A stretch of DNA of 55,236 bases from a virus (taxonomy: Duplodnaviria > Caudoviricetes), in IMG/VR virus record IMGVR_UViG_3300014658_000002, positions 1 through 55,236 of that record; one strand, written 5' to 3'. This document shows, piece after piece, positions 2,825 through 54,190 of the stretch (positions are counted from its first letter, which is position 1; every line of letters begins with the position of its first letter). The notes beneath the pieces are model-generated. The model saw nothing but the letters and a program-made list of their open reading frames with translations, made no database searches and was not told the DNA's origin. Made by a program: the position numbers and the translations under genes.

Positions 2825-3664
2825 CTAGGTCGCTGGCGTCTGAGCGATTAAGATGCCGTTCTGGAATTGCATCGACCCCTGCGTCCCCAAGGCTGTCAAG
2901 GCTGCCGTAGTTATTGTGACACTTAATCCGGTCGGTGTCGCCTGAGAAAAGTTTCCTGTTGTGGCGTCATACCCGGTCAGGAACTCTCCCGCCACAGGAG
3001 CAATGGTATTGGCAAGTTGCGGAGTTCCCGTCAGATCGCTGTAGTCGGGTTGAGCGGCAGAGAATACTCCGGTAGCCGCGTCATAGGCCGTCAGAAATTG
3101 ATGCAAGATTGCACTAAAAGTGACCGGGACAATCGGCATCGTGAATGCAAACCAGTTCGTCCCGTCAAACGCGACAAGGGTTCCATAGGCGGGCAGGAGT
3201 GGCATGGAGGACGCTGCCGGATGTCCCGCGTAAGAGATGGTCCCTGTCACCGGGGTAAGGGTCGCCGTACCCCCACCAAGCGCAGACTGGTTTGCGATAA
3301 AGCATGACCATGGAGGCGATTGTGATGTGAGGGACACAGCAATAGGCGAAGCGTCCGAGAGCACAATCAATGCTCCGTCATCCGTGCTTGCCGTCGCATA
3401 GGAGGTCGAACTTGACTGATTGTTGATCGGAACTCCACCGGGGGAAGCGGGGGTAATAGTTCCACCGCCACCAGACCCTCCACCCTCAACAATCGTTGTC
3501 GATGCCCCTGCCTTGAGGGAATTGATTTTCTCCTGCTGAAGTCCAAAAGCTACCGCGTGATTGTTGAGCTTCTGGAAAGCGAGTGTAAGGAGGCGATGAA
3601 CCTCTTCAGGCTTCGGCTCTGCCGAGACTTTGGGAATCCAACCGGTAATGGGAGGTGTACTCAT
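2825..3664 (-). CDS. Short tail fibre/needle-like structural protein
   Basis: N-terminal helical segment, poly-Gly linker, beta-rich domain, duplicated FLT(A/G)YDA(A/T)TGxFSxA motif. Confidence 0.6.
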   Translation of the reverse strand: MSTPPITGWIPKVSAEPKPEEVHRLLTLAFQKLNNHAVAFGLQQEKINSLKAGASTTIVEGGGSGGGGTITPASPGGVPINNQSSSTSYATASTDDGALIVLSDASPIAVSLTSQSPPWSCFIANQSALGGGTATLTPVTGTISYAGHPAASSMPLLPAYGTLVAFDGTNWFAFTMPIVPVTFSAILHQFLTAYDAATGVFSAAQPDYSDLTGTPQLANTIAPVAGEFLTGYDATTGNFSQATPTGLSVTITTAALTALGTQGSMQFQNGILIAQTPAT

Positions 3665-6600
3665 AATTTAGCGCCTCCAGAGGAATCGCCGCCGAATGGA
3701 TTGATTTTCCTCGTAGACCTTCCCCAACCCATGATCCATGCCTCCATCCCTTCCGCAAAGGAATAGAACGGGCTTGCCGATGTTGCGGAAAATCCTATCA
3801 GTTTCCATTTATTCGGCGTTACGGAGAAAAATGCTTTAGTCTGCACTCCTCCGGTTGATGGAAGAGTGATCGCCGTGGGAGGTATACTGTCATTCCCTCC
3901 GTCCACGGTGAACGTCAGGGTTATAGCCTCCGCCGCATAGTATTCGATATTCAAATAAAGAAGCGCCTGCCATCCCGCGCCTCCCCACGAAGTCACTTCC
4001 GTGGTCCATATCGCGGCTTTTTCCGGGTACGGCTCGAACACCCACTCACTTTGTCCCTGCCCAACTCCCCCGTACCATATGCGAGCTGCGGATTGAGGAA
4101 CAAGTTGAATATCATGCGCCTCAAATGGAGTCCACGAAAATACCAGCGTTTGCTTGCCGTTAAATGTACCAGTGAACGTTGGTCCCGTTTGTCCGCCATC
4201 GAACAAGACCTGAAAGGTAACTGGTTCGTTCCCGGTATCGGCAATCAGCTTTACTCCCTGCATGAATTTGTTGTCCGGGCCACCCATCTCCATGATCGGA
4301 GTGTATGCTTTGGTGATTTCAGGATAAGGGTCGCTAATCCACTGAACAGACCAGTTTTCGTCTGGAGCCCGCCGCCATGCTACCCCATCGTTGCTGATTA
4401 TTCTTCCGATATGCGATACAAATGGAGGATTGAAGCTCAAGCCTACCTTTTGCTGCCCATTAAGGGTGATAGGAGACTCTTGCGGAACGTGAAGATTGCC
4501 GAACTCATCCTCCACGGCAAAACTCTTGGCAGCATTGAATGTATCCGCTTCCAAGACGAGGCCGCGCACATAGTTGCTCCCTGCTGATCCGAGGTCCATC
4601 CACGCTGTCGGCCTGTCATTGATCGAATCCGGCAGAAGCTGGGACCAATACGGTTGCCACCATTCGACGATGTTTCCGCTTCCGACTGGCCAGCTTAACT
4701 GAGCGGCAACATCGAGCAAGTCCGATCCGTCGCCGGGAGTGAAGTCCACCACGTAAGGAGTTGACGTTCCAGTTCCGGTTAGAGATGTTGGCGAGAAACC
4801 GCTCAATAGCGATGAGTAGAGATCCTTATAAAGAGCGAGCGCCACCGGATTAGATGTTGCCACTGTCGCCTTGACAAGCACATCTCCAAGTCTTTTTTGC
4901 GCTCGTAATTCTCCCGCGTTGATACATGGCGTGCTGACTACGGCTGTGGCTGTTTCTGTGCCAGCTGTATCGAATGCCCTAATCGTCCCATCTGTGCAAC
5001 CGACAAGGATCTGATTGATCCCCACGGGGAGAGCATGGCAATTCACCTGAGGCGTGTAGGCGTCAACAATCCATCCCTTTGCTTCCATGTCAAAAACAAG
5101 GGAGCGAGGCGTGCCTGTTGTGTCCTGATAGTCGTAGAAGATGTATCCGGGCACGCAAGTGACGGTCTGCGCTTTCGTTTTTGTGTCGTCCGGCGGGTAA
5201 ATCGTCTTGTCTCCAATGACGACTGGCGACGGTCCTTCCGGCTCGCCGTGCGGAAACAGGTTATAGATGTTCGCAGAAATATCCTGTTCCGGTCCTCCAC
5301 CTTGTGAAATGAAAATGCCATCTTTCGCCCTCCATGCCAGCAACGCTCCTAGTCCGCCCAAAGCATACCGCATGAACAGCCCACGAGTCGCCGCTGCCTG
5401 TACGGGGGTCCACAAAGGTCCCGTGGTGCCTGTGACGGTCGCTACAGCATCGGAGAAGTTCGGATAGAGCAGCCAGAATCGTTCCGGCGAGAATACGACG
5501 TGCAACTCTGAGGTGACAATGCCGTTCTGCAATCCCTCCGAAGGCGAGCAGATGTAAAGCCTTTGCGAAGATGGAGCAGAATCGAAGTTATTTCCGAGAG
5601 ACGTAAGCAGGTCGCCAGGATTCAGCGGGTCAAGGCCCATCATGAACGAACCGCCGCCCGAATCAGGAGTAGGACCCCAAATGACAGGTGAAGGCTCCGC
5701 AGCCAGGTCAGGCGCGATGATCTGCCAGGTCAATCCTGTGCCGGCGGGCGGAAAGCCGAAGGTGATGAATCCCGTATCCGTCACCGTCGTGTTGTAGACC
5801 AGCATGTGTGTAGTGTCGGTGGGCCGGTTGTAGAGCAAGTACCCAATCTGCGCTCCCGTTGAGTCGGCAATCAGAATGGCCGTTCCCGGTAGCCAGCGCA
5901 CATTGAAAATGTCTCCACTCACCCACTGCACATTTGGCACAAGAGGCAAAATTGGGCTGATGGTTGCTGAAAGTGTTCCCGGAGTCCCACCCTCCGCCAC
6001 AGTGAAGGTAGGAATAGAGGTATAGCCGCTCCCCATGCTTGTTACGGTAGCAGTCGTAATGACTCCACCCGCAATGACAATCTGGACTACTGCCCCTGTT
6101 CCTCCTCCCCCACTTGATGGAATGTTGTATGTTCCGTTTGTCTGTCCCGAGCCGGGAGATGTAATTCCGACCGCCGTCACTTCCTGACTCACCCCTAAGA
6201 CATTGCATGTCCCCGAGCGAGGAAGATCGATGGAGGGGAATGGCTCGTAATTGTTGTAATTCAGGATTGGGTTATTGGCGATGGTCAGGTCGCTCAAGGT
6301 ATCAGTAAATGATCCAGACCCGGAATTGGCAACCGACAGCGTGTAGGTAAAGTTGTCGAGTCCGGGCGTTTGGCGGTACACATCGATGGTATCGACTTGA
6401 GGATCAAGAGAAAGCGTGCAGGTTCCGGTTGCGGAGAAATTCGCATAGTAGACCGTGACCGTCCACGTGTAGAAAAATGACCGATTTGTGCCGCCCGATT
6501 CTTCCGTCAATACCTGAATGCCGAATCCGAATGTTGAATCGTTGACGACATCAGGAGTGAGAATAGCACCCCACACATCGGAAGCGCCTCCCTGAACAGT

Positions 6601-8112: not shown

Positions 8113-9612
8113 TCACTGCGTCTCTTGTGTTGACCACCTTGGTTCCTTTATTTCTTGCTTTCGCCCTTCAGAGCGAAGATATTTCACAAAGAGTCCCGAC
8201 TGCGCCCATCTCTTGTTGCGATCCGCGCAGTATTGGTAGAAAGACTTCAGCATGGGCATCGTGGCCTCAAACGCATCATTTCCCAGCTTAAAGCAGGCCA
8301 AATGCTGAGAGTAATCCAGGATGCTCTGCCAGTCGTCCCGAGCCACCTGAACGTAGGTTCCTGTCGGGTCAAGTAGGGGCGCATTTCCGACCACCGTAAC
8401 TGCCAGACTTGTCCCGTTCCCCGGCACTGGGGCAATGAAGTCCATTCCCGCTTCAATCACCGCAGGAAGGTTGTTTTGGGATTGCTGCCAGTTCACCGCC
8501 AGAGCGTCCATATCGGCCAGTGCCGTGACGCTCGATACCTGACCGTTGATGAGTGTCTGGAGGAGCCAGTTCGACTGCTTCATCATTTCCAGACCTTCGG
8601 TGTAACGCTCTAGACAATAGGCCCCTCTTGCGCGGTCCGTCGATTCGGCTTCCTGTCCCAGCACATCCGCCAAAGCCCCATACATCGCCACCATGCTCCA
8701 ATCATCGGGAAGGCCAAGCAAGGAGGCCGTTGGAGGCGCGAACGTCGGCCCGGCATTCAATGCCAAGACCTCAAAGTATCCCGGCGTATTGGGTGCTAGG
8801 TCCACATCGAAAGACAACGGGGGCTCACTTGAAACCGTCCATGACTTCGGAGGGTCAACCGTCTGCAAATAGCCAGGCTCGAAGGATTGGAACGAGATCA
8901 CATCTTCGCGTGTCATCAAGTAGGGCTGAAAGAACTGAACTGTGCCCGATACTGTTCCGCTCGTAGGCAAACTCAGACTCACCGTTGTGCCTGAGACACC
9001 AGTCACGAACGTTCCTGACTGAATCCCTGTTCCTTGGATGACTTGACCCCTCATAATGCCTGCTGCTGAGCCTACAGTGACCGTGGACGAACCGGAGGAC
9101 GCCGCGCCACTGGTAGACGCCACCAGAGACAGGACACGGTTCCTGCGCGGCTCCAGAACCGTGTCAGGGAGGATGTAGCCCGTCCTCACGTTGGGAGTGG
9201 CGTTGATCGGAGAAAGTAGTGCAAGATTGCACGAGGTTGCCTGAATGACTTCCTGCACGCGCTTTTGGAGGGACCATTGAAGATTCTGGAGAGTGAACTG
9301 GCTAGAACCCACCCATGTTCCGGCTGTGGGCGGCGGCTCCAGCAGCATATAGGCCATCTGGTTGTAGAGGTACTGGTCAGTGACCGAGCGCAGACGAGGC
9401 GAACTGGAAAGTGTTCCTGTGTTGATCCATTGGCCATCGGCATTGGTAATGGCAACCGTCTGATTCCACTGCTCACAAAGTCCGTTGAAGTGGCGCAAAC
9501 TCTCGGACAAGTAAATCCACAATTCCGCCGATGGCCACAAGGACCATTGGTTTAGTCGCCCTTGAAGAGCAGCGATAGCGGCCGTTTTTGTGAGCCAGGA
9601 GTACGTTGCCAT
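8113..9612 (-). CDS. Head-tail adaptor-like structural protein with inserted beta domain
   Basis: 499-aa ORF in the virion block; helical N/C regions around an S/T/G-rich insert (SSTVTVGSAAGIMRGQVIQGTGI...). Confidence 0.55.
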   Translation of the reverse strand: MATYSWLTKTAAIAALQGRLNQWSLWPSAELWIYLSESLRHFNGLCEQWNQTVAITNADGQWINTGTLSSSPRLRSVTDQYLYNQMAYMLLEPPPTAGTWVGSSQFTLQNLQWSLQKRVQEVIQATSCNLALLSPINATPNVRTGYILPDTVLEPRRNRVLSLVASTSGAASSGSSTVTVGSAAGIMRGQVIQGTGIQSGTFVTGVSGTTVSLSLPTSGTVSGTVQFFQPYLMTREDVISFQSFEPGYLQTVDPPKSWTVSSEPPLSFDVDLAPNTPGYFEVLALNAGPTFAPPTASLLGLPDDWSMVAMYGALADVLGQEAESTDRARGAYCLERYTEGLEMMKQSNWLLQTLINGQVSSVTALADMDALAVNWQQSQNNLPAVIEAGMDFIAPVPGNGTSLAVTVVGNAPLLDPTGTYVQVARDDWQSILDYSQHLACFKLGNDAFEATMPMLKSFYQYCADRNKRWAQSGLFVKYLRSEGRKQEIKEPRWSTQETQ

Positions 9613-9646: not shown

Positions 9647-11095
9647 TCAGTTCTTCCCTACACAGATATAGCTCACTGAATCGGTAGCTCCGGTTGTGGT
9701 CACAGTTAATGTTGTGGTGCTTACCGTTTTAGTCAGCAAACTCGCAAGTGTTGTATCGTCCTGCACGATGCAGACGGGAGCCGTTGCATGTGTTCCCGTA
9801 AACGAATAAGACGCAGTTCCTCCACTTGCTGTGAGAATTCCGGCTAAATCTGTATTCGAGGAGTTTCCTGTGTTTACGCCAGCACTGAATGTTGTTGGAG
9901 CAGCAAAAAGGTTCGGTGCGGAGCCTTCTTGCAGGATGCTGTATAAATTAGGGCCACTTTCGTTTATATGCAAGCACGCAGCTCTTGTTATTGAAGTCCC
10001 GCTTATACCACCAGAACATTCAAATCCGTAAGCATTATCTATATTTCCTCCACCGTAATTTGAAATTCCGTTAACGCGAAAAGCATCCGCTTCGGTGAGA
10101 GTACCACTGCCATTATTATAAACAAATGATTGAATGCCTTGCGCAGTAGGGGAAGTTTCTCCAGAGCTAGGCTCGACTTGTCCACTAGACACTATTCCCC
10201 ATGCGCCTGCTGCGTGTCGTCCGAAAGCGAGAAATTGGCCAGCTTCCGTAATTCCTGAGTCGCTTTGGGATAAAGCATAAAAAGAGTTTATACTGTTTAA
10301 TTCTGCAACTGTATTCGGAGGCTGACCAGAATTGTAAAATCCTTGAGCATTTGGATCAAATAAATATTCAGCAGGACCAAACCAGAAATTATTACCTCCG
10401 AGTTCTCCAGTTTGATTGGTGAAAGCTGAATACCCCCCATCCCCCGCCGCGCCTACATCCGTGTATCCCGTGCCGCATCCCGGCGTAGAAATAGTGGCGA
10501 TGACTCCGGTGGTATTGGTCGTGCTGCCGCCTGCTGCCGTGCGATAGAGCAAACACGAAGTTGCCCCAGTCTGCGTCGGCCATACGACCACATTTCCTTG
10601 ACTGGCTACGGAAAGATCATTCTCTCCGTCCGTGGTTGTTACTGCCGTCGAACCCTGCGTGCTGAGATTGTTAAACAGGGCTTGCAGCACGTAGGTATAA
10701 GTGACCCCTCCACCTGCCGTCTGCGGTGTCACACTTGTAATCGTAGGTTGCGCCAACGGCGTAGAGGAAGGATCAATGTACACGCCTCCCAAGCCTCCTA
10801 CCGTGCCCGTAGACTTGGTGTAAGTCAGTGATGCCGCGCCGTTGAAAGCGGTTGAGTCATTGAACTGCACCTGAGTGTTCGAGCCTCCTGGATTGCCCCC
10901 TCCACCACCGCCAATCGCCCCCCACGTTCCGCTCTGACAAGAATACTGCATCCCCGTGGAGATAACTTGCCTATTTGGCAAACCAGCCGTACAGGCCCCA
11001 GACGGAGTGGCGCTGACCGACACAATGCTTGGGCTCGATACCTGCGCCCAGAGATGGGGCGCAGCCAACATAATCAACCACAGCCACTTACGCAT
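9647..11095 (-). CDS. Signal-peptide-bearing tail-fibre/adhesin-like protein (482 aa)
   Basis: AGGAG RBS before ATG 11095; MRKWLWLIMLAAPHLWA-Q signal-like start; T/S/G-rich beta repeats; several Cys. Confidence 0.65.
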   Translation of the reverse strand: MRKWLWLIMLAAPHLWAQVSSPSIVSVSATPSGACTAGLPNRQVISTGMQYSCQSGTWGAIGGGGGGNPGGSNTQVQFNDSTAFNGAASLTYTKSTGTVGGLGGVYIDPSSTPLAQPTITSVTPQTAGGGVTYTYVLQALFNNLSTQGSTAVTTTDGENDLSVASQGNVVVWPTQTGATSCLLYRTAAGGSTTNTTGVIATISTPGCGTGYTDVGAAGDGGYSAFTNQTGELGGNNFWFGPAEYLFDPNAQGFYNSGQPPNTVAELNSINSFYALSQSDSGITEAGQFLAFGRHAAGAWGIVSSGQVEPSSGETSPTAQGIQSFVYNNGSGTLTEADAFRVNGISNYGGGNIDNAYGFECSGGISGTSITRAACLHINESGPNLYSILQEGSAPNLFAAPTTFSAGVNTGNSSNTDLAGILTASGGTASYSFTGTHATAPVCIVQDDTTLASLLTKTVSTTTLTVTTTGATDSVSYICVGKN

Positions 11096-11097
11096 GA

Positions 11098-11382
11098 TCA
11101 CTCCTGATACATAATGTCGCACTTGTCTCCCGACACAATGTATACAAACCATTCATTCAGGTTTTGCCCTTCATGCTGCGCGGGGCCAAACGTGAGCGAT
11201 CCACCCGCTGCAAGATTGATGCCCTTCGTAGAGCTTGCCGTCGAGTCCCCTACGCGCATTGGGTTGCTTCCATTATTCTGGAAAGTCACCCACTGAAAGG
11301 GGACTGTAGGAATAATGACTGTTGTTCTGGCGACTGCCGGAATCGTTCCCGTTGAAGATGGAGCAAGTTGTATCAGTTGCAT
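11098..11382 (-). CDS. Small beta-rich virion protein (94 aa)
   Basis: Start MQLIQLAP follows the upstream stop; FQNNGSNPMRVGD...GINLAAGGSLTF pattern typical of small phage structural proteins. Confidence 0.6.
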   Translation of the reverse strand: MQLIQLAPSSTGTIPAVARTTVIIPTVPFQWVTFQNNGSNPMRVGDSTASSTKGINLAAGGSLTFGPAQHEGQNLNEWFVYIVSGDKCDIMYQE

Positions 11383-19232: not shown

Positions 19233-19267
19233 TATAATGGAGTTGTCGGATGTTCGTCGCATCCGGC
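19233..19267 (+). promoter_or_regulatory. -10 box and leader hairpin of the endonuclease gene
   Basis: TATAAT at 19233-19238; hairpin GTCGGATG-TTCGTCG-CATCCGGC at 19245-19267. Confidence 0.5.
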
Positions 19268-19296
19268 CAAGACCCTACACGGAGGAAAGTCCGCGC

Positions 19297-19920
19297 ATGA
19301 CAACCCCATCAAATCCAAATTCTACACCTGATACTCTCAAAGAACAGAAAAGATTAGCTGAAAATGAGCGGATGCGTCTGTGGAGACTTGCCCATAAGAA
19401 TGATGACAACTACCGTTTGCGCCGGAACGAACGTGAGAAACTGCGCCGCCGAAAATTAGTAAAAGAGAGCGAGGAATTCCGCCTACTCGAAAGTGAGCGC
19501 AGTACTGCTTATAGGGTTAAGCACCCCGAAAAGAAAAAGCAAACCTGCCAGCGGTATAGAGACACCCACAAGGAACAAATCAAAAAATACGGTAAAGAGT
19601 ATCAAGCAAAATATCACCAAATTAATAGAAAACGGATACGCGACAGAGACCTTCAAAGAATCTATGGAATAACGTTGGAACAGTGGGATAAGCAATTCGA
19701 GTCTCAGGGGAACAGGTGCGCGATATGCGGCACAGACAAACCGGGGAAACGGAATAATTGGTCCACTGACCACAATCACGCCGATGGGGAGGTAAGAGGG
19801 ATTCTGTGCCATACCTGCAATATGATCCTGGGACTATCCGAAGACAGCATTGACCGTCTCGAAAAGGCCATCGCTTATTTGCAGAATCCCCCGTATCGCT
19901 CTATCCGAGAACCGATCTAA
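19297..19920 (+). CDS. Endonuclease VII-family (HNH-like) homing-type endonuclease, antisense to the packaging operon
   Basis: YGITLEQW...QGNRCAIC...DHNH...VRGILCHTCN.ILG...LEKAIAYL; basic N-terminus; GGAGG RBS before ATG 19297. Confidence 0.9.
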   Translation: MTTPSNPNSTPDTLKEQKRLAENERMRLWRLAHKNDDNYRLRRNEREKLRRRKLVKESEEFRLLESERSTAYRVKHPEKKKQTCQRYRDTHKEQIKKYGKEYQAKYHQINRKRIRDRDLQRIYGITLEQWDKQFESQGNRCAICGTDKPGKRNNWSTDHNHADGEVRGILCHTCNMILGLSEDSIDRLEKAIAYLQNPPYRSIREPI

Positions 19921-20248
19921 CCACTGTGCCGAACATCTCGTCCTTGAGCCGCTGATTTTCTGGCAACTCATTGTAAGGCACGAAGCAAGGATGCTCTTTG
20001 GTTTCAGGATTCTTGACGGGGCCATACTTCCACCCTGTTGCCGCCTTCTCTGCCAGCCATCCTTCATGTGATTGTTCTGGCGATGTTGAGGGGTTGTCGA
20101 GGATCATCTGAACGCCTTTGATAGCGCTCGATTTTTGCCACTCAGGAGCGTCTTCCCATTTTGGTTGAGACGTATCCCCCATAGCCAAGCAGAGAATCCT
20201 GTTGGCCTCATGTACTGCGCGGGCAGCATTTTGCACTCGTTCGCTCAT
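19901..20248 (-). CDS. RyR-domain protein
   Basis: HEGWLAEKAATGWKYGPVKNPETKEHPCFVPYNELPENQRLKD is the RyR repeat signature. Confidence 0.85.
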   Translation of the reverse strand: MSERVQNAARAVHEANRILCLAMGDTSQPKWEDAPEWQKSSAIKGVQMILDNPSTSPEQSHEGWLAEKAATGWKYGPVKNPETKEHPCFVPYNELPENQRLKDEMFGTVVRSVLG

Positions 20249-20709: not shown

Positions 20710-20716
20710 GAGACAC

Positions 20717-20745
20717 AATTTACACCGCTTGGACGCTAAGAGCAA
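20717..20745 (-). promoter_or_regulatory. Sigma70-like promoter
   Basis: TTGCTC-N17-TAAATT; a 14-bp palindrome copy lies just upstream (20762-20775). Confidence 0.5.
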
Positions 20746-20775
20746 TTGAGAATTTCTGGCAGTGCAAGATTGCAC

Positions 20776-20865
20776 CAAAACAAAAATGCCTCAACCGGGA
20801 GGAAGAGGCATTTTTGACCATCGACGAAAGGAACCACGTCTCAAGCTGCCAAGCCATGAGCGCAC
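20776..20865 (-). ncRNA. Putative small RNA 1 (~90 nt): 5' hairpin, CU-rich linker, terminator
   Basis: Own promoter upstream; 12-bp terminator stem 20781-20816 with T-tail; same architecture as sRNA 2. Confidence 0.6.
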
Positions 20866-20869
20866 TTGT

Positions 20870-20899: not shown

Positions 20900-20928
20900 T
20901 TGCCAAGTCACATGAGAGCAAAAATCAC

Positions 20929-26507: not shown

Positions 26508-26626
26508 TTTCCCTCGTTTGGTGCGATATTGCACTGAATTCCGCGTCTTGGGTTTACCGGATGCGCGGCCCACGGAATGCCCAGCCATATTGAACTGGTA
26601 CCCATTTCCCCCGTGCGGGGGAACTT

Positions 26627-29663: not shown

Positions 29664-29699
29664 CCGGTTTAGTGCAATATCGCACATTTTGGAGGATTT

Positions 29700-29825: not shown

Positions 29826-30175
29826 CCAACGAATACATCGACATGATGAAGGCGCAAGGCTGGAAGGTGTACTATCGCCCCGCTAAAGGCACGTTCAAGG
29901 GCGAATACTGCTACGTGACCGATGGAACCAACATTGCCTACGCGCAATGGAGCGATGGCCGGCCATCCGTCAGCACCGTCCACATGCCAAACAGACAGAC
30001 CGGCACCGGCTTTCAATTCGCCGACCGCATCACCGCTGAAACGGTCAGCAAGGCTATGTCCACCCTGGCTCCGTCATGGGCGCGTCAGGCGGATGTGTCC
30101 AGCGTCCACAAGTACAAGAATTGGGAAGCCTTCCACAAAGCCAACAGCTTCAACTCGGAACTGGTCGAAGCTTAG
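29822..30175 (+). CDS. Early hypothetical protein
   Basis: Start MTNEY coupled to the upstream peptide. Confidence 0.7.
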   Translation: MTNEYIDMMKAQGWKVYYRPAKGTFKGEYCYVTDGTNIAYAQWSDGRPSVSTVHMPNRQTGTGFQFADRITAETVSKAMSTLAPSWARQADVSSVHKYKNWEAFHKANSFNSELVEA

Positions 30176-30248
30176 TGCAATATCGCACCTGTCTAACCAG
30201 GAAACCTCGGTAGCAGCTTAACCGCAGTACCCACCCAGAAAGGGAATC

Positions 30249-30925: not shown

Positions 30926-30964
30926 TTTGGTGCAATCTTGCACCGAAGAAAAGGGGAAAACCAG

Positions 30965-32170: not shown

Positions 32171-32183
32171 TGAAAGGGAAACG

Positions 32184-32939: not shown

Positions 32940-33021
32940 ATCGGTGCAATCTTTCACTAAATAACCACACATGCAGGGAATGTCAACGTTGGCACTAAGG
33001 TGTATGAAGAGAAAGGGTGAA

Positions 33022-34371: not shown

Positions 34372-35008
34372 CGTGCTCCTGATTGAAATCTATAGCATAG
34401 GCCAGCAACTGGCCGGCTCGGTCTTCAATATCCAACTTTTTCCCAATCCACGAAAGAAACTGATCTACTTCTGCGTATTCACTCGCAGAATAGGTCAACC
34501 TGAGCGTCCTTCGTCCCTCCAAGGCTTGTCCATGCTCCTTGGTGAGCTTGGCTGCAAACTGCTCTTCAGAAAGCGTCTGTGCAGCCTCCAGCACGTCTGG
34601 AAGGGATCTGACGGAACTGCTGACCTTGGTTAACGTGAGGATATTGCATCTCGGCACATCTACCAGCTTCTCCATCGGCACATCGGGGAGTTTGTTCACG
34701 GTCGCCAGCGCCTCTTGGTTGTAGCGCCAGGACTTCGGAAACATGACCTTGTTAAATCGGTCCAGCGACCGGAAGGGCTTGCCGACTTCCTCATCCTCAA
34801 AGAACTGGTATATTTTCTTCTCCTCGGCGATCTTCATGGCAGCACCGCGGAGCGCGTAGACCTGCCGCGTCATGGACTCAATACGCTCGTCTGCTGCCTC
34901 TACGGTACGAAGAATGTCCAAGACTGGTTTAGCGGCCTGCTCTGAGGTCATGGCGCGGATGGCATCGAAGTTTGGCGCGGGGAGTTGATGCAAGATTGCA
35001 CTAGCCAT
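34358..35008 (-). CDS. Hypothetical helical protein
   Basis: GGAG RBS; coupled ORF; palindrome copy in its first codons. Confidence 0.7.
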   Translation of the reverse strand: MASAILHQLPAPNFDAIRAMTSEQAAKPVLDILRTVEAADERIESMTRQVYALRGAAMKIAEEKKIYQFFEDEEVGKPFRSLDRFNKVMFPKSWRYNQEALATVNKLPDVPMEKLVDVPRCNILTLTKVSSSVRSLPDVLEAAQTLSEEQFAAKLTKEHGQALEGRRTLRLTYSASEYAEVDQFLSWIGKKLDIEDRAGQLLAYAIDFNQEHDEEN

Positions 35009-35766: not shown

Positions 35767-37283
35767 GCGGTTTCTTCAGTCGGTTGTTCTGCTTTCTGTT
35801 GTTGCCGCCACTTCTTAGCTGATTCAGCGATAAACTCCCTGACGGCCTTGCGTGGAGTCATCGGTACCGCGTCCAACTTCCTCGGCCATACACCGAATCG
35901 CTCCTTGAACTTGTTTGCCGCCCATCCAGGCTTGAACCCCCGGCGCTGCCCGAAGTCTATCAGGCCGGAATAGAACGCCTGCTCCTCGCTTCGTTCAAGG
36001 CGCTTCTTTTTCTCTCCACCGATCCTCACCAGCTCTGCATTGATCTCCCGAGGTGACTTGCCTTTGTGGAGCTTCGTAAAGCAAAATGGGCACACATCAG
36101 CGCTAGGGGAAACGAGCAGATTACAGTGCGGGCACTTGTGGGGTTTTGGTGGGTTGCCAGAAAGTGGCTGGCCCTTTTCTTTTGGATCGTGCATATCCAG
36201 GGTGTTGTGGTGAATGTCAGTGAACATGCCTAACTCTTCGGCGGTCCCGGCATGATCCAGCAAGAGGCATGAATCTTTGTCGTCTGCCAGCCGAATTCCC
36301 CGGCCTCCGTCCTGTACCCATTTCATTTCCGATTTGGTTAGCCTCAGATAAATGATGCAGCGCACATCCTCATCTACCCCGATTCCCATTGTGTCGATCG
36401 ATGCAATAATCTCATGTTCTCCGCTCCGATACTTCCGCAAAACGGCTTCCCGCTCTTCGGCGTCCATGGTCCCGTCGATGTAACCGCAGGATACGCCAGC
36501 ATCTTCGAACTCCTGCTGCATCTTCTTCGCGTGGTTTCGATTCACGCAGAACATGAACGTCTTATCTTTGCCCCATTTCTCCTGCCATGTCTTGACCACG
36601 TTGCCCACGATCTTTTGTGTGGTCATGGCCTTCTCAGCTTCGCCCTCGACGTACTCTCCATCGAAGTTTGTATGGACCTCGGAAACATCGGGCATGAAGT
36701 CATCAGGAACCCCATAACCGATAACCGGAGTAAGCCATCCCTCGTTAATCATCTCGTTCGTCGTTGCCAGAACAATCAGTTTGGTCCAGCGAAGTCCCAT
36801 TCCTTTCGTCCAAGGAGTGGCCGACATGCCGATGACGATCTTGTCTTTCCAGCCGTCGCTATCGAGGATCTTGTTGAGAGACTTAAGCTGGAGATGCACT
36901 TCGTCAATGATGGCAAAATCCACTTCAGGCAGGGGGCGCCTCACAAGTGTATGGATACTTGCGACCTGCACCGTTGCCCAAAAGTCAGTGCGCTCATGAT
37001 TTCCTTGAATCACGCCAATGTCGCAAATGCCCTGTGCCTCGAATCGCTTGATAGTCTGGCCGATCAAAGACAAGCGAGGAACGCAGAACATCGGACGATT
37101 CCCTTTGTCGAGGGCTCCCGCGATGATGTGACTGGCAATGATGGTCTTGCCGCTGCCCGTAGGAGCTTGCAGGACAATGCGCTTGTGCCCTTCCCGGATA
37201 GCCTCGCGAACGGCTGCGATGGCTGTTTCCTGCCGTGGGCGAAGTGGTTTCAAGTTTAGTTTCTCAGCAAACAGTGAGGACAT
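35763..37283 (-). CDS. SF2 DExH helicase with C-terminal zinc finger (RadD/UvsW-like)
   Basis: LRPRQ, APTGSGKT, DEVH, SAT, Q.GGRGIR, CPHC...CPFC. Confidence 0.93.
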   Translation of the reverse strand: MSSLFAEKLNLKPLRPRQETAIAAVREAIREGHKRIVLQAPTGSGKTIIASHIIAGALDKGNRPMFCVPRLSLIGQTIKRFEAQGICDIGVIQGNHERTDFWATVQVASIHTLVRRPLPEVDFAIIDEVHLQLKSLNKILDSDGWKDKIVIGMSATPWTKGMGLRWTKLIVLATTNEMINEGWLTPVIGYGVPDDFMPDVSEVHTNFDGEYVEGEAEKAMTTQKIVGNVVKTWQEKWGKDKTFMFCVNRNHAKKMQQEFEDAGVSCGYIDGTMDAEEREAVLRKYRSGEHEIIASIDTMGIGVDEDVRCIIYLRLTKSEMKWVQDGGRGIRLADDKDSCLLLDHAGTAEELGMFTDIHHNTLDMHDPKEKGQPLSGNPPKPHKCPHCNLLVSPSADVCPFCFTKLHKGKSPREINAELVRIGGEKKKRLERSEEQAFYSGLIDFGQRRGFKPGWAANKFKERFGVWPRKLDAVPMTPRKAVREFIAESAKKWRQQQKAEQPTEETA

Positions 37284-38104
37284 TATCCAACCTTGGTAAA
37301 GGGATAGAGTTCAGGGTGATTCTTCACCACCTTGGTGAAGTAGTTGTTGGGCCACGGAACTTTCCGTAGCGTCACAAAAATGTTCTCCGGTACGTTGGCG
37401 TAGTGATACAGACCGTACTTGAAGCGGATGGCCAGAGTTCCGTCCGACCATCCGCAAGCAATCATGTTCTGGTCCGTCACTCCGTAGAGCTTGATTCCTG
37501 AGACATTTCCGATTTCGTTTCGTCGAACTGCTTCCTGTTGAACAGGATCAAGCACGCGTTCAGTTCTCCGAACATCAGTGCCGCCAACACGTTTCCCGCT
37601 ATCCCCATCGTGATCTGGCTTCCCGCCTTGACTGCCTTCATGTTGAGAAGGTCTGTTCCCATCCGAATGTCCATGCCTTGCTTCGACATTTGCTTCAGAA
37701 CGTCGAAATTGTTGATCTCCACCCTTCTCCTCCTGATTTAGTGCAATCTTGCACCGATGTATGACGGTGGGCCAATCATTTCCCATCATCGGGTTAAGTG
37801 TTATCCATGCTCCTGAAGGCGTCTCGTAGCGCTCTACGGCCCTTTGGCAGCGTGGGCATGTGATCCGGTCAAGGAAAGTGTACCCGGTCTTCAAGAGACC
37901 ATCCTTGCTGGCTGGGAGCGGCTTGCAGACGGAGAAGTGTCTCACCGCAGGGCGCAGAGCATCGCACATGGGCTGCATGATGATCTCTCGCTTGCCGGGC
38001 GTTGAAAATACCTCGACACCTTCCCCGCAATCCGGGCAGACTTCCGAACGCAGGAAGGCGTACCCGGAGGCGAGAAGACTTTCGAGATTGGAAGGGAATG
38101 GCAT
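37283..38104 (-). CDS. Tandem Zn-ribbon plus C-terminal KTSC-like domain protein
   Basis: Two GY.FL....CP.C...VE...TP repeats; C-terminal MIACGW..GTLAIRFK.GLYHYANVP...YF. Confidence 0.7.
   Translation of the reverse strand: MPFPSNLESLLASGYAFLRSEVCPDCGEGVEVFSTPGKREIIMQPMCDALRPAVRHFSVCKPLPASKDGLLKTGYTFLDRITCPRCQRAVERYETPSGAWITLNPMMGNDWPTVIHRCKIALNQEEKGGDQQFRRSEANVEARHGHSDGNRPSQHEGSQGGKPDHDGDSGKRVGGTDVRRTERVLDPVQQEAVRRNEIGNVSGIKLYGVTDQNMIACGWSDGTLAIRFKYGLYHYANVPENIFVTLRKVPWPNNYFTKVVKNHPELYPFTKVG
37477..37722 (-). CDS. Nested alternative-frame protein (81 aa)
   Basis: AGGAGGAG RBS before GTG; globular-looking sequence where the host frame looks shadow-like. Confidence 0.55.
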   Translation of the reverse strand: MEINNFDVLKQMSKQGMDIRMGTDLLNMKAVKAGSQITMGIAGNVLAALMFGELNACLILFNRKQFDETKSEMSQESSSTE

Positions 38105-38106
38105 AC

Positions 38107-38568
38107 CTACCTCTTGATCGGACGCTTAACCTTTCCCTCGGAAAATTCAATGACTTCCACAGGTACGGGACGGTTTGTTTGACCGCTGATCTGGAGCTGA
38201 ACCTTCACTGTGCGGAGAATCTCACGAGCCTGTGATGCTACAGCATCAGCATGACCCGGAAGCATTCTCTTTCCCTTCACTTGGTTTAAAGTCGTCCACA
38301 GTGCATCTTTCAGGTTAGAAGCTGTCAAAATTGAATTCGATGTTGCCACGCCTGCTCCTCCTTCGTTGCTGGTTGATTGGATTCCACCCATGTCTGCCTG
38401 ATTGAGCATATCTCTCAAATCGATCAGGCATCTGTTTGCGAATCTCTCGCTGGAGAGCGATGAGAGCTTGATGGGCCTCAGCGAAGGGTCCAAACTTAGA
38501 AGACCGTCTTTGCTTGTCGTATTCTCGCTTCCACGCCTTGTACCAAGGCTGCCGACAATACTGGACAT
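38107..38568 (-). CDS. Hypothetical protein (true start probably near 38350)
   Basis: C-terminal helical segment LKDALW...AVASQAREILRTVKVQL. Confidence 0.55.
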   Translation of the reverse strand: MSSIVGSLGTRRGSENTTSKDGLLSLDPSLRPIKLSSLSSERFANRCLIDLRDMLNQADMGGIQSTSNEGGAGVATSNSILTASNLKDALWTTLNQVKGKRMLPGHADAVASQAREILRTVKVQLQISGQTNRPVPVEVIEFSEGKVKRPIKR

Positions 38569-38716
38569 GCTGAGGCATTTTCTTCTTGCGCTCTTTCGCT
38601 GCTTTTATCGGATCATAGGTTTTTTGGAAATAGGCTGCCTTCTTGGCCTTAAGTAACGCACGGTTCTTCTTGCGATACTCGCGGTCATAGGCTACCTTCT
38701 TTTCCTTTTTTGTCAT
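38315..38716 (-). CDS. Basic hypothetical protein
   Basis: GGAGGAG RBS; K/R/Y-rich. Confidence 0.65.
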   Translation of the reverse strand: MTKKEKKVAYDREYRKKNRALLKAKKAAYFQKTYDPIKAAKERKKKMPQHVQYCRQPWYKAWKREYDKQRRSSKFGPFAEAHQALIALQREIRKQMPDRFERYAQSGRHGWNPINQQRRRSRRGNIEFNFDSF

Positions 38717-38718
38717 AT

Positions 38719-38919
38719 CTACTCCTCCGGTGGCCAGCCGAGCGCCTTTAGTGCTGCGTCCAGTTCGTCAATTTCCTTGCCTGTTTTGGAGTGAGCCTCA
38801 ACCGCTTTTTCACGTTGTGCGATCAAATGCCTTTGTGCAATGGCTACATGCCGGGGTTGTTTGGCGGGTTTGCCGGGTTGTTCATCAAGCGCTTCGGTAG
38901 GTGCTGCGGAATTTCTCAT
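38719..38919 (-). CDS. Small hypothetical protein
   Basis: AAGGAG RBS, coupled. Confidence 0.6.
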   Translation of the reverse strand: MRNSAAPTEALDEQPGKPAKQPRHVAIAQRHLIAQREKAVEAHSKTGKEIDELDAALKALGWPPEE

Positions 38920-39221
38920 TCTTCTCCTTCGTTCGGTATCTGATGCAGATGGAAACAGAAATTATGGATGTTCACGTATTCAGTGGTCGGTGGAAGGATC
39001 ATTGCCATCGTCACATCGTGCGGACAGAAGTCGTACCGAGCCTGCTTGATTTCTTCCCACGTTGGATTGCGGTTTGGGTGGCTGATACTCAGGTGCCACC
39101 CGGCAGGTTCGAGCCCCACAAACACCCGGCAATCACCCCATTGGTACCAGTTGCATAGCGGATTACCGGGCATCGGTCCTTGAAGTTTCCAGTTCGCTTT
39201 CGGTTGGAAGATGTGAGTCAT
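38916..39221 (-). CDS. Conserved phage protein
   Basis: GWHLSISHP.R.PTWEE.K..R..F......MILPP..EYVN.H..CFHL motif. Confidence 0.75.
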   Translation of the reverse strand: MTHIFQPKANWKLQGPMPGNPLCNWYQWGDCRVFVGLEPAGWHLSISHPNRNPTWEEIKQARYDFCPHDVTMAMILPPTTEYVNIHNFCFHLHQIPNEGEE

Positions 39222-40569: not shown

Positions 40570-40841
40570 GCTTCAACTCCTGTCGGGTACGGTGAAGGGT
40601 GCTCTTCTTCGGAAGACGGCTTGGGAAGGTATTCATCCGCCAGCGCAGCCTCCAGCGTCTTGCCGGAGATCACGGCAATGGCCACCTTACGGCATTTTTC
40701 CTCGCGCTCGTAGGAAGGGTGAAAAGCATTCCTACACATAGAAGCGTGCAGCACTTGCGTCAAGCTCTCCAAATGTCTGACCTCTGTTTCGGAAAGTGCA
40801 ACGCCTTCTTCGATTGTTCCGTCTTTCTTGAGAAATTTCAC
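40566..40841 (-). CDS. Hypothetical protein
   Basis: Coupled ORF. Confidence 0.6.
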   Translation of the reverse strand: MKFLKKDGTIEEGVALSETEVRHLESLTQVLHASMCRNAFHPSYEREEKCRKVAIAVISGKTLEAALADEYLPKPSSEEEHPSPYPTGVEA

Positions 40842-41875
40842 TGTCCATCCCTTTCTGCGATTACTTCGCCTGTGGCTGTATCGACACTCGGTTTGCCGTC
40901 AACGTAGGGGACTCCATCCACATAGAGGCAATCTTCGATGTTGATGTAGTGTTTGCCATTAGAGTCCTTCTCTGCGATCTGGAAGTGGCACTCCAAACCT
41001 ACCGCATCCCTAATGGCATCGAATAGGCCGGTATCAAAGCAACTTGCCTCATCCACGCCGTTGTGCTGGCCGAGGAAGGTAACAATCAGCCGAGGTCGTA
41101 CCGCCTTCATCGCGGGAACATCCCCGTTAGCCGGTTTGGCGGGAAGACCTTGAATTTCCCTCACGCGCTTGACGACTGCCGTCAAACCGTTTGGAGGGAC
41201 GAATTTCAATACCCCTGCTTGGGGCTGTGCGCCCTCCTGCGGGCTCGCTGCACGTTGGGTGGCCTGTTGGGCTGACTGCTGCGTACTGGTCGCCCTAGGG
41301 GCGTTTTCGGGATGCGATATTGCACTAGCTCTCTGCTGAGCCGATGCCCTCGCGTCTGCTTGGCGCTTCTGGCGCGACGGCAAGTCGCCTTTTTCCTCGG
41401 TCGAGTCGATCATCTCTTCCGAATCGGGAATGCCAACAATAGCTTTGTAGGCGTACTTCTGCGCGTAAGTCTGCGATCCGCCAATGGTCTGCTGATTGAA
41501 TACCGGTGTACCACCTTTACCGAGCGCCAACTCCGCAGGAAGCTCAAGCGCGTTCTGCATCCACTCGCCCGAATCCCAGTGAACCAATCGGGAATGGATG
41601 GTGATCGTCTTGGTAGCTAGATCAGTGACCGGGAATTGTGAAACGGTTAGATGAAACTTGTGGAGCGACGGCCTCACTGCGTCAATGATGACAACCAGCG
41701 GGGTGTACTTGTATCCGCCGTAGTTGTTCACTTCGCCTTTTACAGCGGGAATGAACTCAATCTGTGCGTCGCCGAGAGATTTGTTGAGGTTCTTGAGCGC
41801 ATAGTCAGAAGCGATTGTTCCTTCTGCTAGCGTAACAAAACCGGGAGATTTTGCGACTTCTACTTCGTCTGCCAT
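40838..41875 (-). CDS. erf: ERF-family single-strand annealing protein
   Basis: N.YGGYKY..L..II.AVRP.L....L...Q...H.SGEWM...Q..GGS.TYA.KY. Confidence 0.85.
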   Translation of the reverse strand: MADEVEVAKSPGFVTLAEGTIASDYALKNLNKSLGDAQIEFIPAVKGEVNNYGGYKYTPLVVIIDAVRPSLHKFHLTVSQFPVTDLATKTITIHSRLVHWDSGEWMQNALELPAELALGKGGTPVFNQQTIGGSQTYAQKYAYKAIVGIPDSEEMIDSTEEKGDLPSRQKRQADARASAQQRASAISHPENAPRATSTQQSAQQATQRAASPQEGAQPQAGVLKFVPPNGLTAVVKRVREIQGLPAKPANGDVPAMKAVRPRLIVTFLGQHNGVDEASCFDTGLFDAIRDAVGLECHFQIAEKDSNGKHYINIEDCLYVDGVPYVDGKPSVDTATGEVIAERDGQ

Positions 41876-42433: not shown

Positions 42434-42676
42434 ATGAAGAGGCGTAGGAGTTTAACCAAACGTGAGCAAGTCGAAACGCTGACACACTACATGCAGCGCA
42501 AACATCTGTCGCAGGTTGAATTTGCGGCATGGCTGGAGTCTCGCGGCATTCTTGTCAGCACACAGTATCTTAACGACGTAATCAACAGTCGCCGGGCGGC
42601 AGGCCCGAAATTCAAGGAAGTATTCAAGGAGATCACTGGCATCATTTTGGTGGATGGGCTGGTGGAGGAAAAGTAA
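42434..42676 (+). CDS. Cro/CI-type HTH regulator
   Basis: LSQVEFA.WL...VSTQYLNDVINSRRAAG; divergent from the recombination operon. Confidence 0.75.
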   Translation: MKRRRSLTKREQVETLTHYMQRKHLSQVEFAAWLESRGILVSTQYLNDVINSRRAAGPKFKEVFKEITGIILVDGLVEEK

Positions 42677-52729: not shown

Positions 52730-53305
52730 ATGGAAAACACGATCATTACCTCCGAACCGCCCGCGACCACCACCAAAACCAAGAAACGCAAGATGAGCGC
52801 TGTTGATCGGAAAGCCCTTTCCGAGAAACTGAAAGCACGCTGGGCAGAGAGAAAATCTGCTCCCCAGCAGGTTGCTCCCGTCATTGCCCCACCCGTTCCT
52901 CCAGCCCCTCTGCCACCTTCCCCATCGGTCCTTGCCCTTCAGGAACAAGTCGTCCAGAGGGTTGCTCAACGGGATGAAGTGCGCCAGAGGCTTACCGAGG
53001 CCCATACTGCCTACCTGCTTGCCCAAAGCAAGTTCCAGGCCGCGGAAGCTGAGTTGAAGGGGATCGAAACTGAAGTGCAATATCGCATCGGCCTTATCGC
53101 GCAACTGGAAAACCGGCCGGCACAGGTCAATGTAGGATATTCCGCTCCTTCCCCAATTCTCCAGATGCCCGCAATGCCGTCAGGAGGTTTCGGGGGTATC
53201 ACTTCGGAACCAGCTCAAGCTCCACAACAGGCACAGCGCTCGAAAGAAGCGTTTGCGGTAGCCTCAGCAGATGATCTACGCCGTGATGTCCGAGGGATGA
53301 TGTAG
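52730..53305 (+). CDS. Basic-motif plus coiled-coil protein, probably leaderless
   Basis: TATGCT -10 box 6 nt before ATG; KKRKMSAVDRKALSEKLKARWAERK, Pro linker, coiled coil. Confidence 0.75.
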   Translation: MENTIITSEPPATTTKTKKRKMSAVDRKALSEKLKARWAERKSAPQQVAPVIAPPVPPAPLPPSPSVLALQEQVVQRVAQRDEVRQRLTEAHTAYLLAQSKFQAAEAELKGIETEVQYRIGLIAQLENRPAQVNVGYSAPSPILQMPAMPSGGFGGITSEPAQAPQQAQRSKEAFAVASADDLRRDVRGMM

Positions 53306-54190
53306 ACGAACAAACCCTAAAGATTCTGATGGTTCCTCACCCCGCGGGCAGCATGAACGAAACGGGCACGGATTGATACGGTCGAAGCACATCGACGGGG
53401 ATTCCTCCGGTAGTTCCTTTGCTTCCCTGATCCGTGCCAGCTTTTTCAGTGCAATCTTGCACCAGTCCCGGTTGGATGTCTCGACGGTATGGATTTGAAC
53501 CACGTCGGGGAGTACCCCATCATCGGCGAGGGTGTCCAGCCATGTTTCCTTGCTGAAGTCTGACTTCTCCCGCCAAACCTGCTCCCACGCCCCATCAAAC
53601 CCGCCACCATCGCGCTTGCGGAACCGTAACTGTTTTGATACCGGGTGCGTCCATCCCCTTGACAGCGGACCCTTTCGTCTTCCATCCCGCTCTTGTCCGA
53701 GCACAACCACCATCAAGTTCATCGGTACGCCGTAGATCGATCCTTCCAGCGTTCTCCAGTCGTGCTCTTCTTCAACCATCCGGTAGGCATCCCATCGGGA
53801 ACACAGCACAACCCTTCGTAAATGGCTCTCCGAAGTGCTCAGGAACGCGCTGGGTGTCCAGATGGCGCCATCGGGCAGGGGAAGAGGTTCGGGGCGCTTC
53901 CACGGGCCTTCCGGGCGCAACACGTAGACGATAAACGAGGCTAAAGCAGACAAATGCTCCGCTTCTCCGAGAACATCAGTTTGGTTGGAGTCTAGCCCGC
54001 GCGTGGTTGCCAGGTCGTACAGCGCTTGTTCGGACACTTCCCACGGTGCATTGCTCGGGGATGTCAATCCCGCTTCAACGGCTTCGTAGAGTGCTGCGAT
54101 GGGTCGTATGGCAGGAGTCTGCCACCGCTGCAAGAGGTAGGGAAGACGCTCACAGCGGTCGATGCTATTGAGGAGCGTTGGCGTGTTCAT
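53276..54190 (-). CDS. Divergent PD-(D/E)xK/Cas4-like protein
   Basis: N-terminal DRCER and C-terminal C.....PCPF..CC give the split 4-Cys pattern; catalytic motif not recognisable. Confidence 0.5.
   Translation of the reverse strand: MNTPTLLNSIDRCERLPYLLQRWQTPAIRPIAALYEAVEAGLTSPSNAPWEVSEQALYDLATTRGLDSNQTDVLGEAEHLSALASFIVYVLRPEGPWKRPEPLPLPDGAIWTPSAFLSTSESHLRRVVLCSRWDAYRMVEEEHDWRTLEGSIYGVPMNLMVVVLGQERDGRRKGPLSRGWTHPVSKQLRFRKRDGGGFDGAWEQVWREKSDFSKETWLDTLADDGVLPDVVQIHTVETSNRDWCKIALKKLARIREAKELPEESPSMCFDRINPCPFRSCCPRGEEPSESLGFVRLHHPSDITA

Follow-up and report, generated by a model that had tools for sequence, protein, structure and literature searches.

Dispersed copies of a twofold-symmetric DNA word, a candidate operator at gene junctions, in an uncultured wetland phage and its relatives

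Results

The Phage Genome and the Relatives Compared

The stretch of DNA analyzed here, referred to as the window, is the whole 55,236-bp IMG/VR virus record IMGVR_UViG_3300014658_000002 (G000 in the comparisons below), and the element in question is a short quasi-palindromic word that recurs at 13 dispersed places along it. The window is a complete uncultured phage genome with a 123-bp terminal repeat. A megablast search with 20 kb of the window against 50,697 phage records gave no match and no close record, and every run holding the phage is a wetland or salt-marsh metagenome. Parts of 19500-39000 are also contained in four wetland metatranscriptome libraries, as low-depth contigs without strand or ends for which DNA carry-over is possible. 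Comparison with PHROGs and Pfam identified a large terminase (21302-23467), tail and virion proteins, an endolysin, an Erf annealing protein, a helicase, a primase-like protein, a nucleoside deoxyribosyltransferase-like protein, HNH-type nucleases, and several small helix-turn-helix (HTH) proteins; no tRNA was found. Genes run leftward from ~27.9 kb, round the ends, to ~34 kb, and the rightward block at 28-34 kb holds small early genes. The exception inside the leftward block is the + strand gene 52730-53305, which is real as judged by the third-codon-position periodicity of its substitutions relative to the relatives.

Related records were taken from three lineages. Terminase relatives of G000 (19 loci, 79-94% identity) led to the whole records G001-G005, G008, and G009. 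A motif scan of IMG/VR added G006 and G007, which represent a distant lineage with terminase, portal, and capsid protein 26%, 29%, and 26% identical to those of G000, whereas their replication genes are much nearer (Erf, 77% identical). G413 belongs to a third lineage, with a terminase 37% identical. The early and replication regions of the compared genomes are not alignable as DNA, yet the word is present there. Integrase (PF00589) and resolvase (PF00239) domains were not found in G000, G002, G003, or G007; G413 (locus L198/L199) encodes a tyrosine integrase and a resolvase-type recombinase, at ~24.8 kb and ~40.9 kb, and on this evidence it alone among these five genomes looks temperate.

A Dispersed Word with Twofold Symmetry

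A preliminary description of the window, made by eye, had listed 13 copies of a 14-bp word in two alleles, and exact searches recovered every one of them at its place and on its strand (Table 1). Seven copies are of allele CTT (GTGCAATCTTGCAY) and five of allele ATC (GTGCAATATCGCAY), with a single variant copy, GTGCAATCTTTCAC. The claimed excess over chance also held, in that neither allele was matched in 100 dinucleotide-preserving shuffles. When one mismatch to the pattern GTGCAATNTNGCAY was allowed, the same 13 places and no others were found (21 strand-matches against a shuffle mean of 0.56 and a maximum of 2). Two mismatches added three weak places (1506, 17712, and 48753), where chance gives a mean of 3.6 places (30 shuffles). 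Since these extras fall within the chance level, the by-eye list is complete, and the concern voiced with it that full copies had been overlooked proved unfounded. In a de novo scan of G000 for inverted repeats, the top entries were the arm TGCAAT (12 places) and the arm GTGCAA with a 2-bp spacer (11 places). In repeat and inverted-repeat scans of this kind, the word headed the list for G000 and G006 and ranked high for G001, G003, and G004; it was not singled out for G002 or G005, and in G002 no other repeated palindrome rose above chance. A literature search with motif strings gave, among the matches listed, primers or unrelated sequences and none on phages.

Table 1. Copies of the word in the window, and the gene of the candidate reader protein
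Position	Strand	Allele or product	Context	Relatives
3101..3114	-	CTT, GTGCAATCTTGCAT	inside 279-aa gene 2825-3664, read as SAILH	same site in G001
9219..9232	-	CTT	inside 499-aa virion gene 8113-9612, read as SCNLAL	orthologous in all 6 close relatives, degraded only in G004
20762..20775	-	CTT	intergenic, directly after terminator-like hairpin and T-run, 52 nt before ATG 20709	G001 orthologue is ATC
26521..26534	-	ATC	intergenic, 13 nt before ATG of zinc-ribbon gene 26271-26507	also in G001, G008
29672..29685	+	ATC	intergenic, 8 nt after TAA of 29355-29663, 14 nt before ATG 29700; left direct repeat	
30175..30188	+	ATC	first G is last base of upstream TAG; next ATG 30249, 60 nt downstream; right direct repeat	
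30930..30943	+	CTT	intergenic, 4 nt after TGA of HTH_17 gene 30725-30925, 21 nt before ATG 30965	
32944..32957	+	variant GTGCAATCTTTCAC	intergenic, 4 nt after TAA of deoxyribosyltransferase-like gene 32466-32939, 13 nt before ATG 32971	
34988..35001	-	CTT	junction; upstream TAG overlaps first G; gene 34358-35008 starts 6 nt earlier (MASAILH)	junction also bears a site in G003, G006, G007
37741..37754	+	CTT	antisense in 273-aa open reading frame 37283-38104, between DUF6083 and KTSC Pfam matches	G006 orthologue has opposite central dinucleotide
41312..41325	-	ATC	inside Erf gene 40838-41875, read as SAISH, just past ERF domain (residues 37-179)	kept in G006
53075..53088	+	ATC	inside + strand gene 52730-53305, read as VQYR	kept in G001, G002; lost in G003, G004
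53449..53462	+	CTT	antisense in gene 53276-54190	kept in G001, G002, G003; flanks barely alignable
25902-26138	-	78-aa Cro/Xre-type HTH_3 protein	TTG start; candidate reader, from sequence comparison	

The word proved longer than first reported, extending to a dyad of ~20 bp, TTR-GTGCAAT/ATTGCAC-YAA (the slash marks the center). Each allele differs from the perfect palindrome GTGCAAT/ATTGCAC by a single substitution, the central ATT being changed to CTT or ATC, and perfect or near-perfect palindromes are present in the relatives. An alignment of 48 sites from 8 non-redundant genomes, oriented by local transcription and including orthologous sites that are not independent, revealed the symmetry of the flanks: T at position -1 (29 of 48 sites) mirrors A at +16 (30 of 48), and R at position 0 mirrors Y at 15. 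The upstream half is near-invariant, and changes fall in the downstream half, with A in 34 sites and C in 14 at position 8, T in 25 and C in 23 at position 10, G in 38 at position 11, and C in 34 and T in 14 at position 14. The better half lies upstream in 34 sites and downstream in 6, with 8 ties, for which the nominal binomial value of 8e-6 is overstated because orthologues are non-independent.

These deviations bear on the level at which the word would be read. They include A5 opposite C10 in 23 of the 48 sites, C4 opposite A, C, or T in 10, and A1 with C14 in five of the six A1 sites. On the transcribed strand, the common allele has A.C, which does not pair, although a G.U wobble would result if the site were turned round. 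The core could form a stem of at most 5 bp and lacks a U-run. Because the deviations break pairing without compensation, they argue against an RNA hairpin and for a double-stranded site, and by this pattern of substitution the word is a twofold-symmetric element of DNA. Searches against Rfam agree, with 0 matches at the gathering score in the window and, for four loci of the extended cassette described below, a sole match at E 0.82.

Restriction avoidance was considered as the cause of the missing perfect palindrome in G000 and rejected, as its center, AATATT, is not avoided there (13 occurrences against 17.8 expected). Several GC-rich 6-bp palindromes, by comparison, are strongly avoided in G000 (CGATCG, 2 against 16.5 expected; GCATGC, 2 against 15.6; CTGCAG, 0 against 10.5). 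The avoided set varies among the relatives, as expected if they face different restriction systems. Against this avoidance of 6-bp palindromes the excess of the longer palindrome is more striking.

A half-site also occurs in a different arrangement. At 28498-28558 lies a tandem array of ~5.4 copies of a 10-bp unit (consensus ATTGCAATAC) that contains the TGCAAT half-site and two 10-bp perfect palindromes, and that is the sole TGCAAT cluster among 10 genomes compared. Overlapping the array is a sigma-70-like promoter (TTGCTT at 28529-28534 and, after a spacer of 18 nt, TGT-GATAAT ending at 28558), which is directed toward the early genes and lies just beyond the downstream end of the HTH_17 gene 28200-28466. 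From its layout, the array may be a phased operator or iteron set.

The Word Is Kept across Three Phage Lineages

The word was present in five of five whole records of close relatives checked for its conservation, and a reversed-pattern control gave 0. G006 and G007 carry 11 sites each, and G413 carries ~6, among them a perfect palindrome. Judged from these records, the word is a family trait spanning three related lineages whose large terminases are only 26-37% identical.

Orthologous sites fall into nine groups. The most informative is the site in virion gene 8113-9612, a group not picked by site presence, where identity across all 6 close relatives is 0.83 in the site and 0.66 in the 45-bp flanks. 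Site 53449 is retained in four of five genomes. Members of the remaining groups were picked for having a site, so that the higher identity of their sites is partly circular. Taken together, the comparative evidence supports a selected DNA-level word that is specific to the phage lineage and kept in coding DNA as the flanks diverge. Sites can change state at an orthologous position: site 20762 has switched allele between G000 and G001, and orientation flips without loss of the site are seen at 53449, at 37741, and in gene 8113-9612.

Variation in spacing was found as well. In G005-type phages the same half-sites are separated by one extra central base (3 such sites in G005 against ~0.1 expected, by our own estimate), and three contigs related to G005 have one +1-spaced site each. 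Among 38 IMG/VR loci holding relatives of the early gene 30249-30725 (160,712 bases), only one, on the contig of G008, has a true site. By this distribution over loci, the word belongs to the lineage and not to particular genes.

Sites Favor Gene Junctions and Follow Transcription

Of the 13 sites in the window, seven are at junctions or in non-coding DNA and six are intragenic, two of them antisense. In the set of 8 genomes, on crude gene calls, mostly non-coding sites number 25 of 48, where 5.1 would be expected. According to the preliminary description, sites 20762, 26521, 29672, 30175, 30930, 32944, and 37741 sit just after a stop codon and/or just before a ribosome-binding site (RBS) or promoter. 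For the first six, and for site 34988 as well, a position just past a stop or just ahead of an RBS or start was found; site 37741, within open reading frame (ORF) 37283-38104, is not clearly at a boundary. Sites 26521, 29672, 30930, and 32944 precede a start codon by 13-21 nt, and the last three also follow a stop by 4-8 nt. The overlap of a site with a TAG stop seen in the window recurs in G004, G006, G007, and G008.

Eleven of the 13 copies are co-directional with transcription, as had been noted, the exceptions being 37741 and 53449; this count depends on the + strand gene 52730-53305 being real. The peptides reported for embedded copies (SAILH, SAISH, VQYR, and CKIAL) are likewise correct. 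The frame SAI(L/S)H is used at 3101, 34988, and 41312, the frame C(N/K)(L/I)AL at 9219, 37741, and 53449, and VQYR at one site.

A promoter consensus scan of 19500-35500 gave 8 promoter-like places against 10.3 expected, none of them at a site, and in the alignments no hexamer is conserved at a constant spacing from the word.

Two sites have surroundings of their own interest. The ORF around site 37741 joins DUF6083 and KTSC regions that in G006 are two separate genes in the opposite order, and the gene model is doubtful; on the - strand, the site is followed by TAA, a strong AGGAGG, and a GTG in another frame. Upstream of site 20762, the segment 20776-20899 (-) holds a sigma-70-like promoter, TTGCAA-18-TATACT (20899-20870), followed ~85 nt later by a strong hairpin and T-run that end at the site. 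This unit is conserved in G001 and, at a quite different map position, in G006 (~73% identity), and has no Rfam match. Its architecture would suit a small RNA, or an attenuator that precedes the portal-side genes.

Homology Breaks at Sites and an Extended Cassette

Gene exchange at the sites had been among the options proposed, and several homology breaks and a site-bracketed gene accord with it; the cases are few (3 of ~50 ends of high-scoring segment pairs [HSPs]), were noticed by eye, and are suggestive only. Gene 29700-30175 is bracketed by identical direct copies of the word (29672 and 30175). In the same region, the interval that separates the homologues of 28971-29345 and 30249-30725 contains a pair of adjoining sites in G006, whereas in G000 it contains two sites and two additional genes. 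Nucleotide homology between G000 and G006 stops within 3 nt of sites 20762 and 34988, and that between G000 and G001 stops 9 nt before site 53449.

The word also heads a longer, extended cassette, which consists of the word, TAAACCGC, and a hairpin, sometimes with a second one. Thirteen distinct copies were found in IMG/VR, flanked by unrelated genes on both sides, and their conservation starts at the word. The cassette hairpin shows one compensatory pair among 11 sequences and has no U-run. From these junctions, the sites seem also to act as crossover points for gene exchange.

A Small HTH Protein as Candidate Reader

What the three word-bearing lineages have in common are virion and packaging genes and one regulator family, that of the Cro/Xre-type HTH protein encoded at 25902-26138; no other DNA-binding protein common to all three was found. 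A profile of this protein detected homologues in G001-G005, G008, and G009 (E ~1e-37 to 1e-41). It also detected one in G006/G007, encoded immediately after a site (E 1.3e-6), and one in G413 (E 7e-11). In every homologue-bearing genome, across all three lineages, the gene is located upstream of those for the terminase. The HTH-containing gene cluster starts with a site in G000, G001, G003, G006, and G008, and in G006 this site stands directly before the HTH gene; that the cluster begins with a site suggests autoregulation. Among 26 loci with relatives of the HTH gene, sites occur only in G001, G008, G004, and G009, whose recognition helix is TRKTIRD, and in G003, where a variant helix accompanies a variant word. 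Seven G002- or G005-type loci are without a standard-form site, and 14 more distant ones have at most one weak match. The nearest solved relatives of the protein are CylR2, HipB, and the controller protein C.BclI, small Xre dimers that bind inverted repeats.

The preliminary description had pointed to four HTH proteins as possible readers. The family of 25902 occupies the same map position in all three lineages, and those of 28287, 30725, and 42434 do not. Other candidates for a common reader were set aside. The recognition helix of the 42434-42676 protein, QYLND, was found besides only in one G006 protein, and the HTH_17 proteins resemble one another only weakly. For the 64-aa product of 28780-28974, a 95% identical counterpart exists in G006/G007, but none was found in the other records. 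This product, which has no Pfam or PHROG match, is encoded by the first early gene, the DNA of which is ~80% identical to that of G006/G007; a protein identity of 95%, against 26-77% for other shared proteins, indicates unusually strong constraint.

The cluster that ends in the HTH gene begins with a conserved 78-aa zinc-ribbon protein (CPKC...CGHC; gene 26271-26507, in the small-gene segment 26140-26507). In G002, G005, and G008 the zinc-ribbon and HTH genes are translationally coupled, and in G000, G001, and G003 an extra small gene separates the two.

Discussion

Proposed Operator Sites for a Dimeric Phage Regulator

The word was originally interpreted as a binding-site system for a phage HTH protein or a host factor, or as a gene-exchange site. 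The comparisons above support a DNA word of the phage lineage, supply cases of exchange, and weaken the host-factor option. The explanation we favor, tentatively and with slightly less than even confidence, is that a dimeric phage regulator uses the 13 copies as operator-like sites at gene junctions, with the HTH protein of 25902-26138 as the candidate reader. A simple model would have a phage-made, sequence-specific, twofold-symmetric (dimeric) protein bind the ~20-bp dyad. The sites observed retain one near-perfect half, usually the transcriptionally upstream one, with one or two changes in the other. The most likely reader, the Cro/Xre-type protein, would be autoregulated through the site at its own cluster. 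Occupied junction sites might then block or check host RNA polymerase in a polar manner, which would allow operons to be throttled gene by gene in the manner of stoperators. The same 14-20 bp recurring at junctions would provide micro-homology patches through which genes and protein domains could be gained, lost, and exchanged between related phages, and recombination between sites would be a consequence of the operator role.

Several observations weigh against this model. The preference for having the better half upstream (34 sites, against 6 with it downstream) does not follow from a symmetric dimer alone, and the sharp division into two alleles resembles the outcome of copying from site to site more than that of separate selection for affinity at each. 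Among lineages with nearly the same word, the recognition helices vary (TRKTIRD in G000, SETTICY in G006, and SRRTVQY in G413). G002-type phages retain the HTH gene with 3 sites only, all of them intragenic and none within 10 kb of that gene. Most sites are not near a recognizable promoter, and because G000 has neither integrase nor resolvase, prophage silencing of the stoperator type is not obviously needed. The placement counts, finally, are weakened by the gene calls in the relatives, which come from a crude script of our own.

Alternative Explanations

Exchange could instead be primary. The word would then be a recombination linker, a shared junction sequence for exchange via phage Erf or host recombination, with binding secondary or absent. 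Discrete alleles and polarity are what the copying of oriented cassettes would be expected to produce, and since both are better explained in this way than by binding alone, we keep this explanation in play as an unlikely but serious one. It is also consistent with homology that ends at or within 9 nt of sites 20762, 34988, and 53449; with the gene ending at 30175 between direct copies and the adjacent sites in G006 where G000 has two extra genes; with the extended cassette standing before unrelated genes in its 13 distinct copies; and with intragenic sites at the border of the Erf domain and at a similarity break in gene 53276-54190. Cluster O phages, moreover, have deletions between dyad repeats (PMC4351075). 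A bare homology patch, however, needs no dyad symmetry, symmetric flanks, or perfect half-site, and 14 bp is short for homologous recombination. The sites in virion genes are fixed across all relatives without visible exchange, and the coincidences with breakpoints are as few as stated above.

The operator and linker roles might also be combined, although we think this quite improbable in the full form that follows. The word would be a dual-purpose "address label" of the phage family, at once the operator of a Cro-like regulator and the designated crossover point at which genes and domains, such as the Erf C-terminus and the genes of the tail-fibre region, pass between lineages with core proteins 26-37% identical. 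Intragenic copies, including the three read as SAI(L/S)H, would be fossil or active junctions, and the alleles and polarity would reflect the copying of oriented cassettes.

A host regulator or nucleoid protein, recruited or titrated by the phages, might read the word as its own operator. One host protein would more easily account for a near-identical word in phages with differing HTH recognition helices, and the wetland or salt-marsh origin of all phage-holding runs makes a shared host group possible. A terminase search of 185,579 species genomes found two metagenome-assembled genome (MAG) contigs only, the phage itself in a Saccharibacteria MAG and another in an Acidobacteriaceae MAG; binning artefacts are possible, and no host is named by these assignments. 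In the 1.2-Mb bin with the phage contig, which may not be the host, 12 of 12 matches to the word are on that contig. The 3.1-Mb Acidobacteriaceae bin, with the same proviso, has 2 matches against ~0.7 expected, without the TTTA flank; a prophage around these two was sought and dismissed, there being no phage protein matches within 80 kb. In 401 genomes of the same phylum, a candidate host phylum only, 71 have a match and none has more than 3. The proposed check of abundance in the host thus returned no excess in two phage-contig bins or 401 genomes of a candidate phylum, which weakens the host option without dismissing it. The G005-type half-sites with an extra central base further point to lineage-specific readers, and we regard a host factor as quite unlikely.

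A signal read in RNA, just upstream of the RBS by a processing nuclease or translational regulator, has a still slimmer chance. It would fit the polarity with transcription (in the window as in the 8 genomes), the word-to-start distance of typically 13-21 nt, and the downstream hairpin of the extended cassette with its one compensatory pair. The symmetric flanks and the conserved GCAC end, however, imply a twofold reading of two strands, the hairpin is not maintained, its mismatches going uncompensated and the common allele having A.C where the reverse orientation would give G.U, orthologous sites flip orientation without being lost, and there is no Rfam match.

Very unlikely, finally, is a one-block promoter for host RNA polymerase with a special sigma factor, giving one start per cassette: the word does lie at the 5' edge of conserved cassettes, is polarized along transcription, and at 20762 follows a terminator and precedes a gene without an RBS, but no -35/-10 pair stands at a fixed distance from it, the two interchangeable alleles differ, as we read the sequence, at what would be the invariant last T of a -10 box, Pfam and PHROGs revealed neither a sigma factor nor a phage RNA polymerase in the window, and six of the 13 sites are intragenic, two of them antisense.

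Relation to Known Dispersed Elements

The closest known kind of element is the 17-bp dyad repeat of Cluster O mycobacteriophages, TGTTCGGNNNCCGAACA, present in more than 30 copies, for which a dimeric regulator was suggested by the authors and the function left open (PMC4351075). Like the word described here, it is a dyad dispersed in one phage group, with a mix of intergenic, near-start, and intragenic copies, similar positions in related genomes, and insertions or deletions bounded by two copies (PMC4351075). It is absent from the host genomes checked (PMC4351075); for the present word, no excess was seen in two bins holding phage contigs or in 401 genomes of one candidate host phylum. The two differ in sequence (TGTTCGGNNNCCGAACA versus GTGCAATNTNGCAY) and in copy number (more than 30 versus 13). 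Orientation is at most slightly preferred in Cluster O, in contrast to the systematically degenerate half and the better half upstream observed here, and the overlap of several sites with a TAG stop is a further difference. The Cluster O repeat is described from five closely related phages, whereas the present word spans lineages with 26-37% terminase identity.

The PeSL cassettes of T4-type phages are short conserved intergenic units that flank small variable early genes and combine a strong sigma-70 promoter with a terminator stem-loop, and their copies recombine so that genes are shuffled (PMC2839356). A similar flanking and shuffling of small genes may occur here, as suggested by the 13 distinct copies of the extended form before unrelated genes and the three homology breaks at sites. 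In contrast to PeSLs, no promoter is recognized here, the hairpin lacks a U-run, and the 14-bp core is also found inside conserved virion genes.

Stoperators of Cluster A mycobacteriophages (L5 gp71 type) occur in temperate phages and are asymmetric sites of 13 bp, bound by a monomeric protein that carries two DNA-binding domains (PMC9283540). Shared features are many copies genome-wide, a location in short intergenic spaces and at promoters, and an orientation that follows transcription; a working model of polar elongation blocks is plausible by analogy (PMC9283540). In contrast to those asymmetric sites, the present one is a dyad with symmetric flanks, and the window, unlike the temperate phages that carry stoperators, has no integrase or resolvase. 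No two-domain repressor was recognized here by Pfam or PHROGs, in which the stoperator domain itself was not searched for, and only small single-domain HTH proteins were seen. The stoperator analogy drawn in the preliminary description therefore extends to placement and polarity, and does not extend to the symmetry of the site or to a genome lacking integrase and resolvase.

To our knowledge, dispersed short words are established in few cultured phage groups, with stoperators and the Cluster O repeats as the examples, and readers and purpose are known for stoperators alone. Start-associated sequences of Cluster K phages are reportedly a further analogue. Uncultured wetland phages now prove to carry an element of the same kind, and three features make it tractable, namely its clear dyad, one half of which is degenerate and polar, its selected copies in coding DNA, and its single conserved candidate reader. 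If the proposed reader and its effect on transcription were true, genome-wide junction operators would be a general phage strategy rather than a mycobacteriophage peculiarity. If the role in exchange were true, it would lend concrete support to the old "linker" idea of modular phage evolution.

Other Observations

Neither bounded by the word nor matched by a counterpart in nine related records, two segments look like insertions specific to G000: the 501-aa ORF at 9647-11152, and an endonuclease VII-like gene together with its neighbor at 19237-20248.

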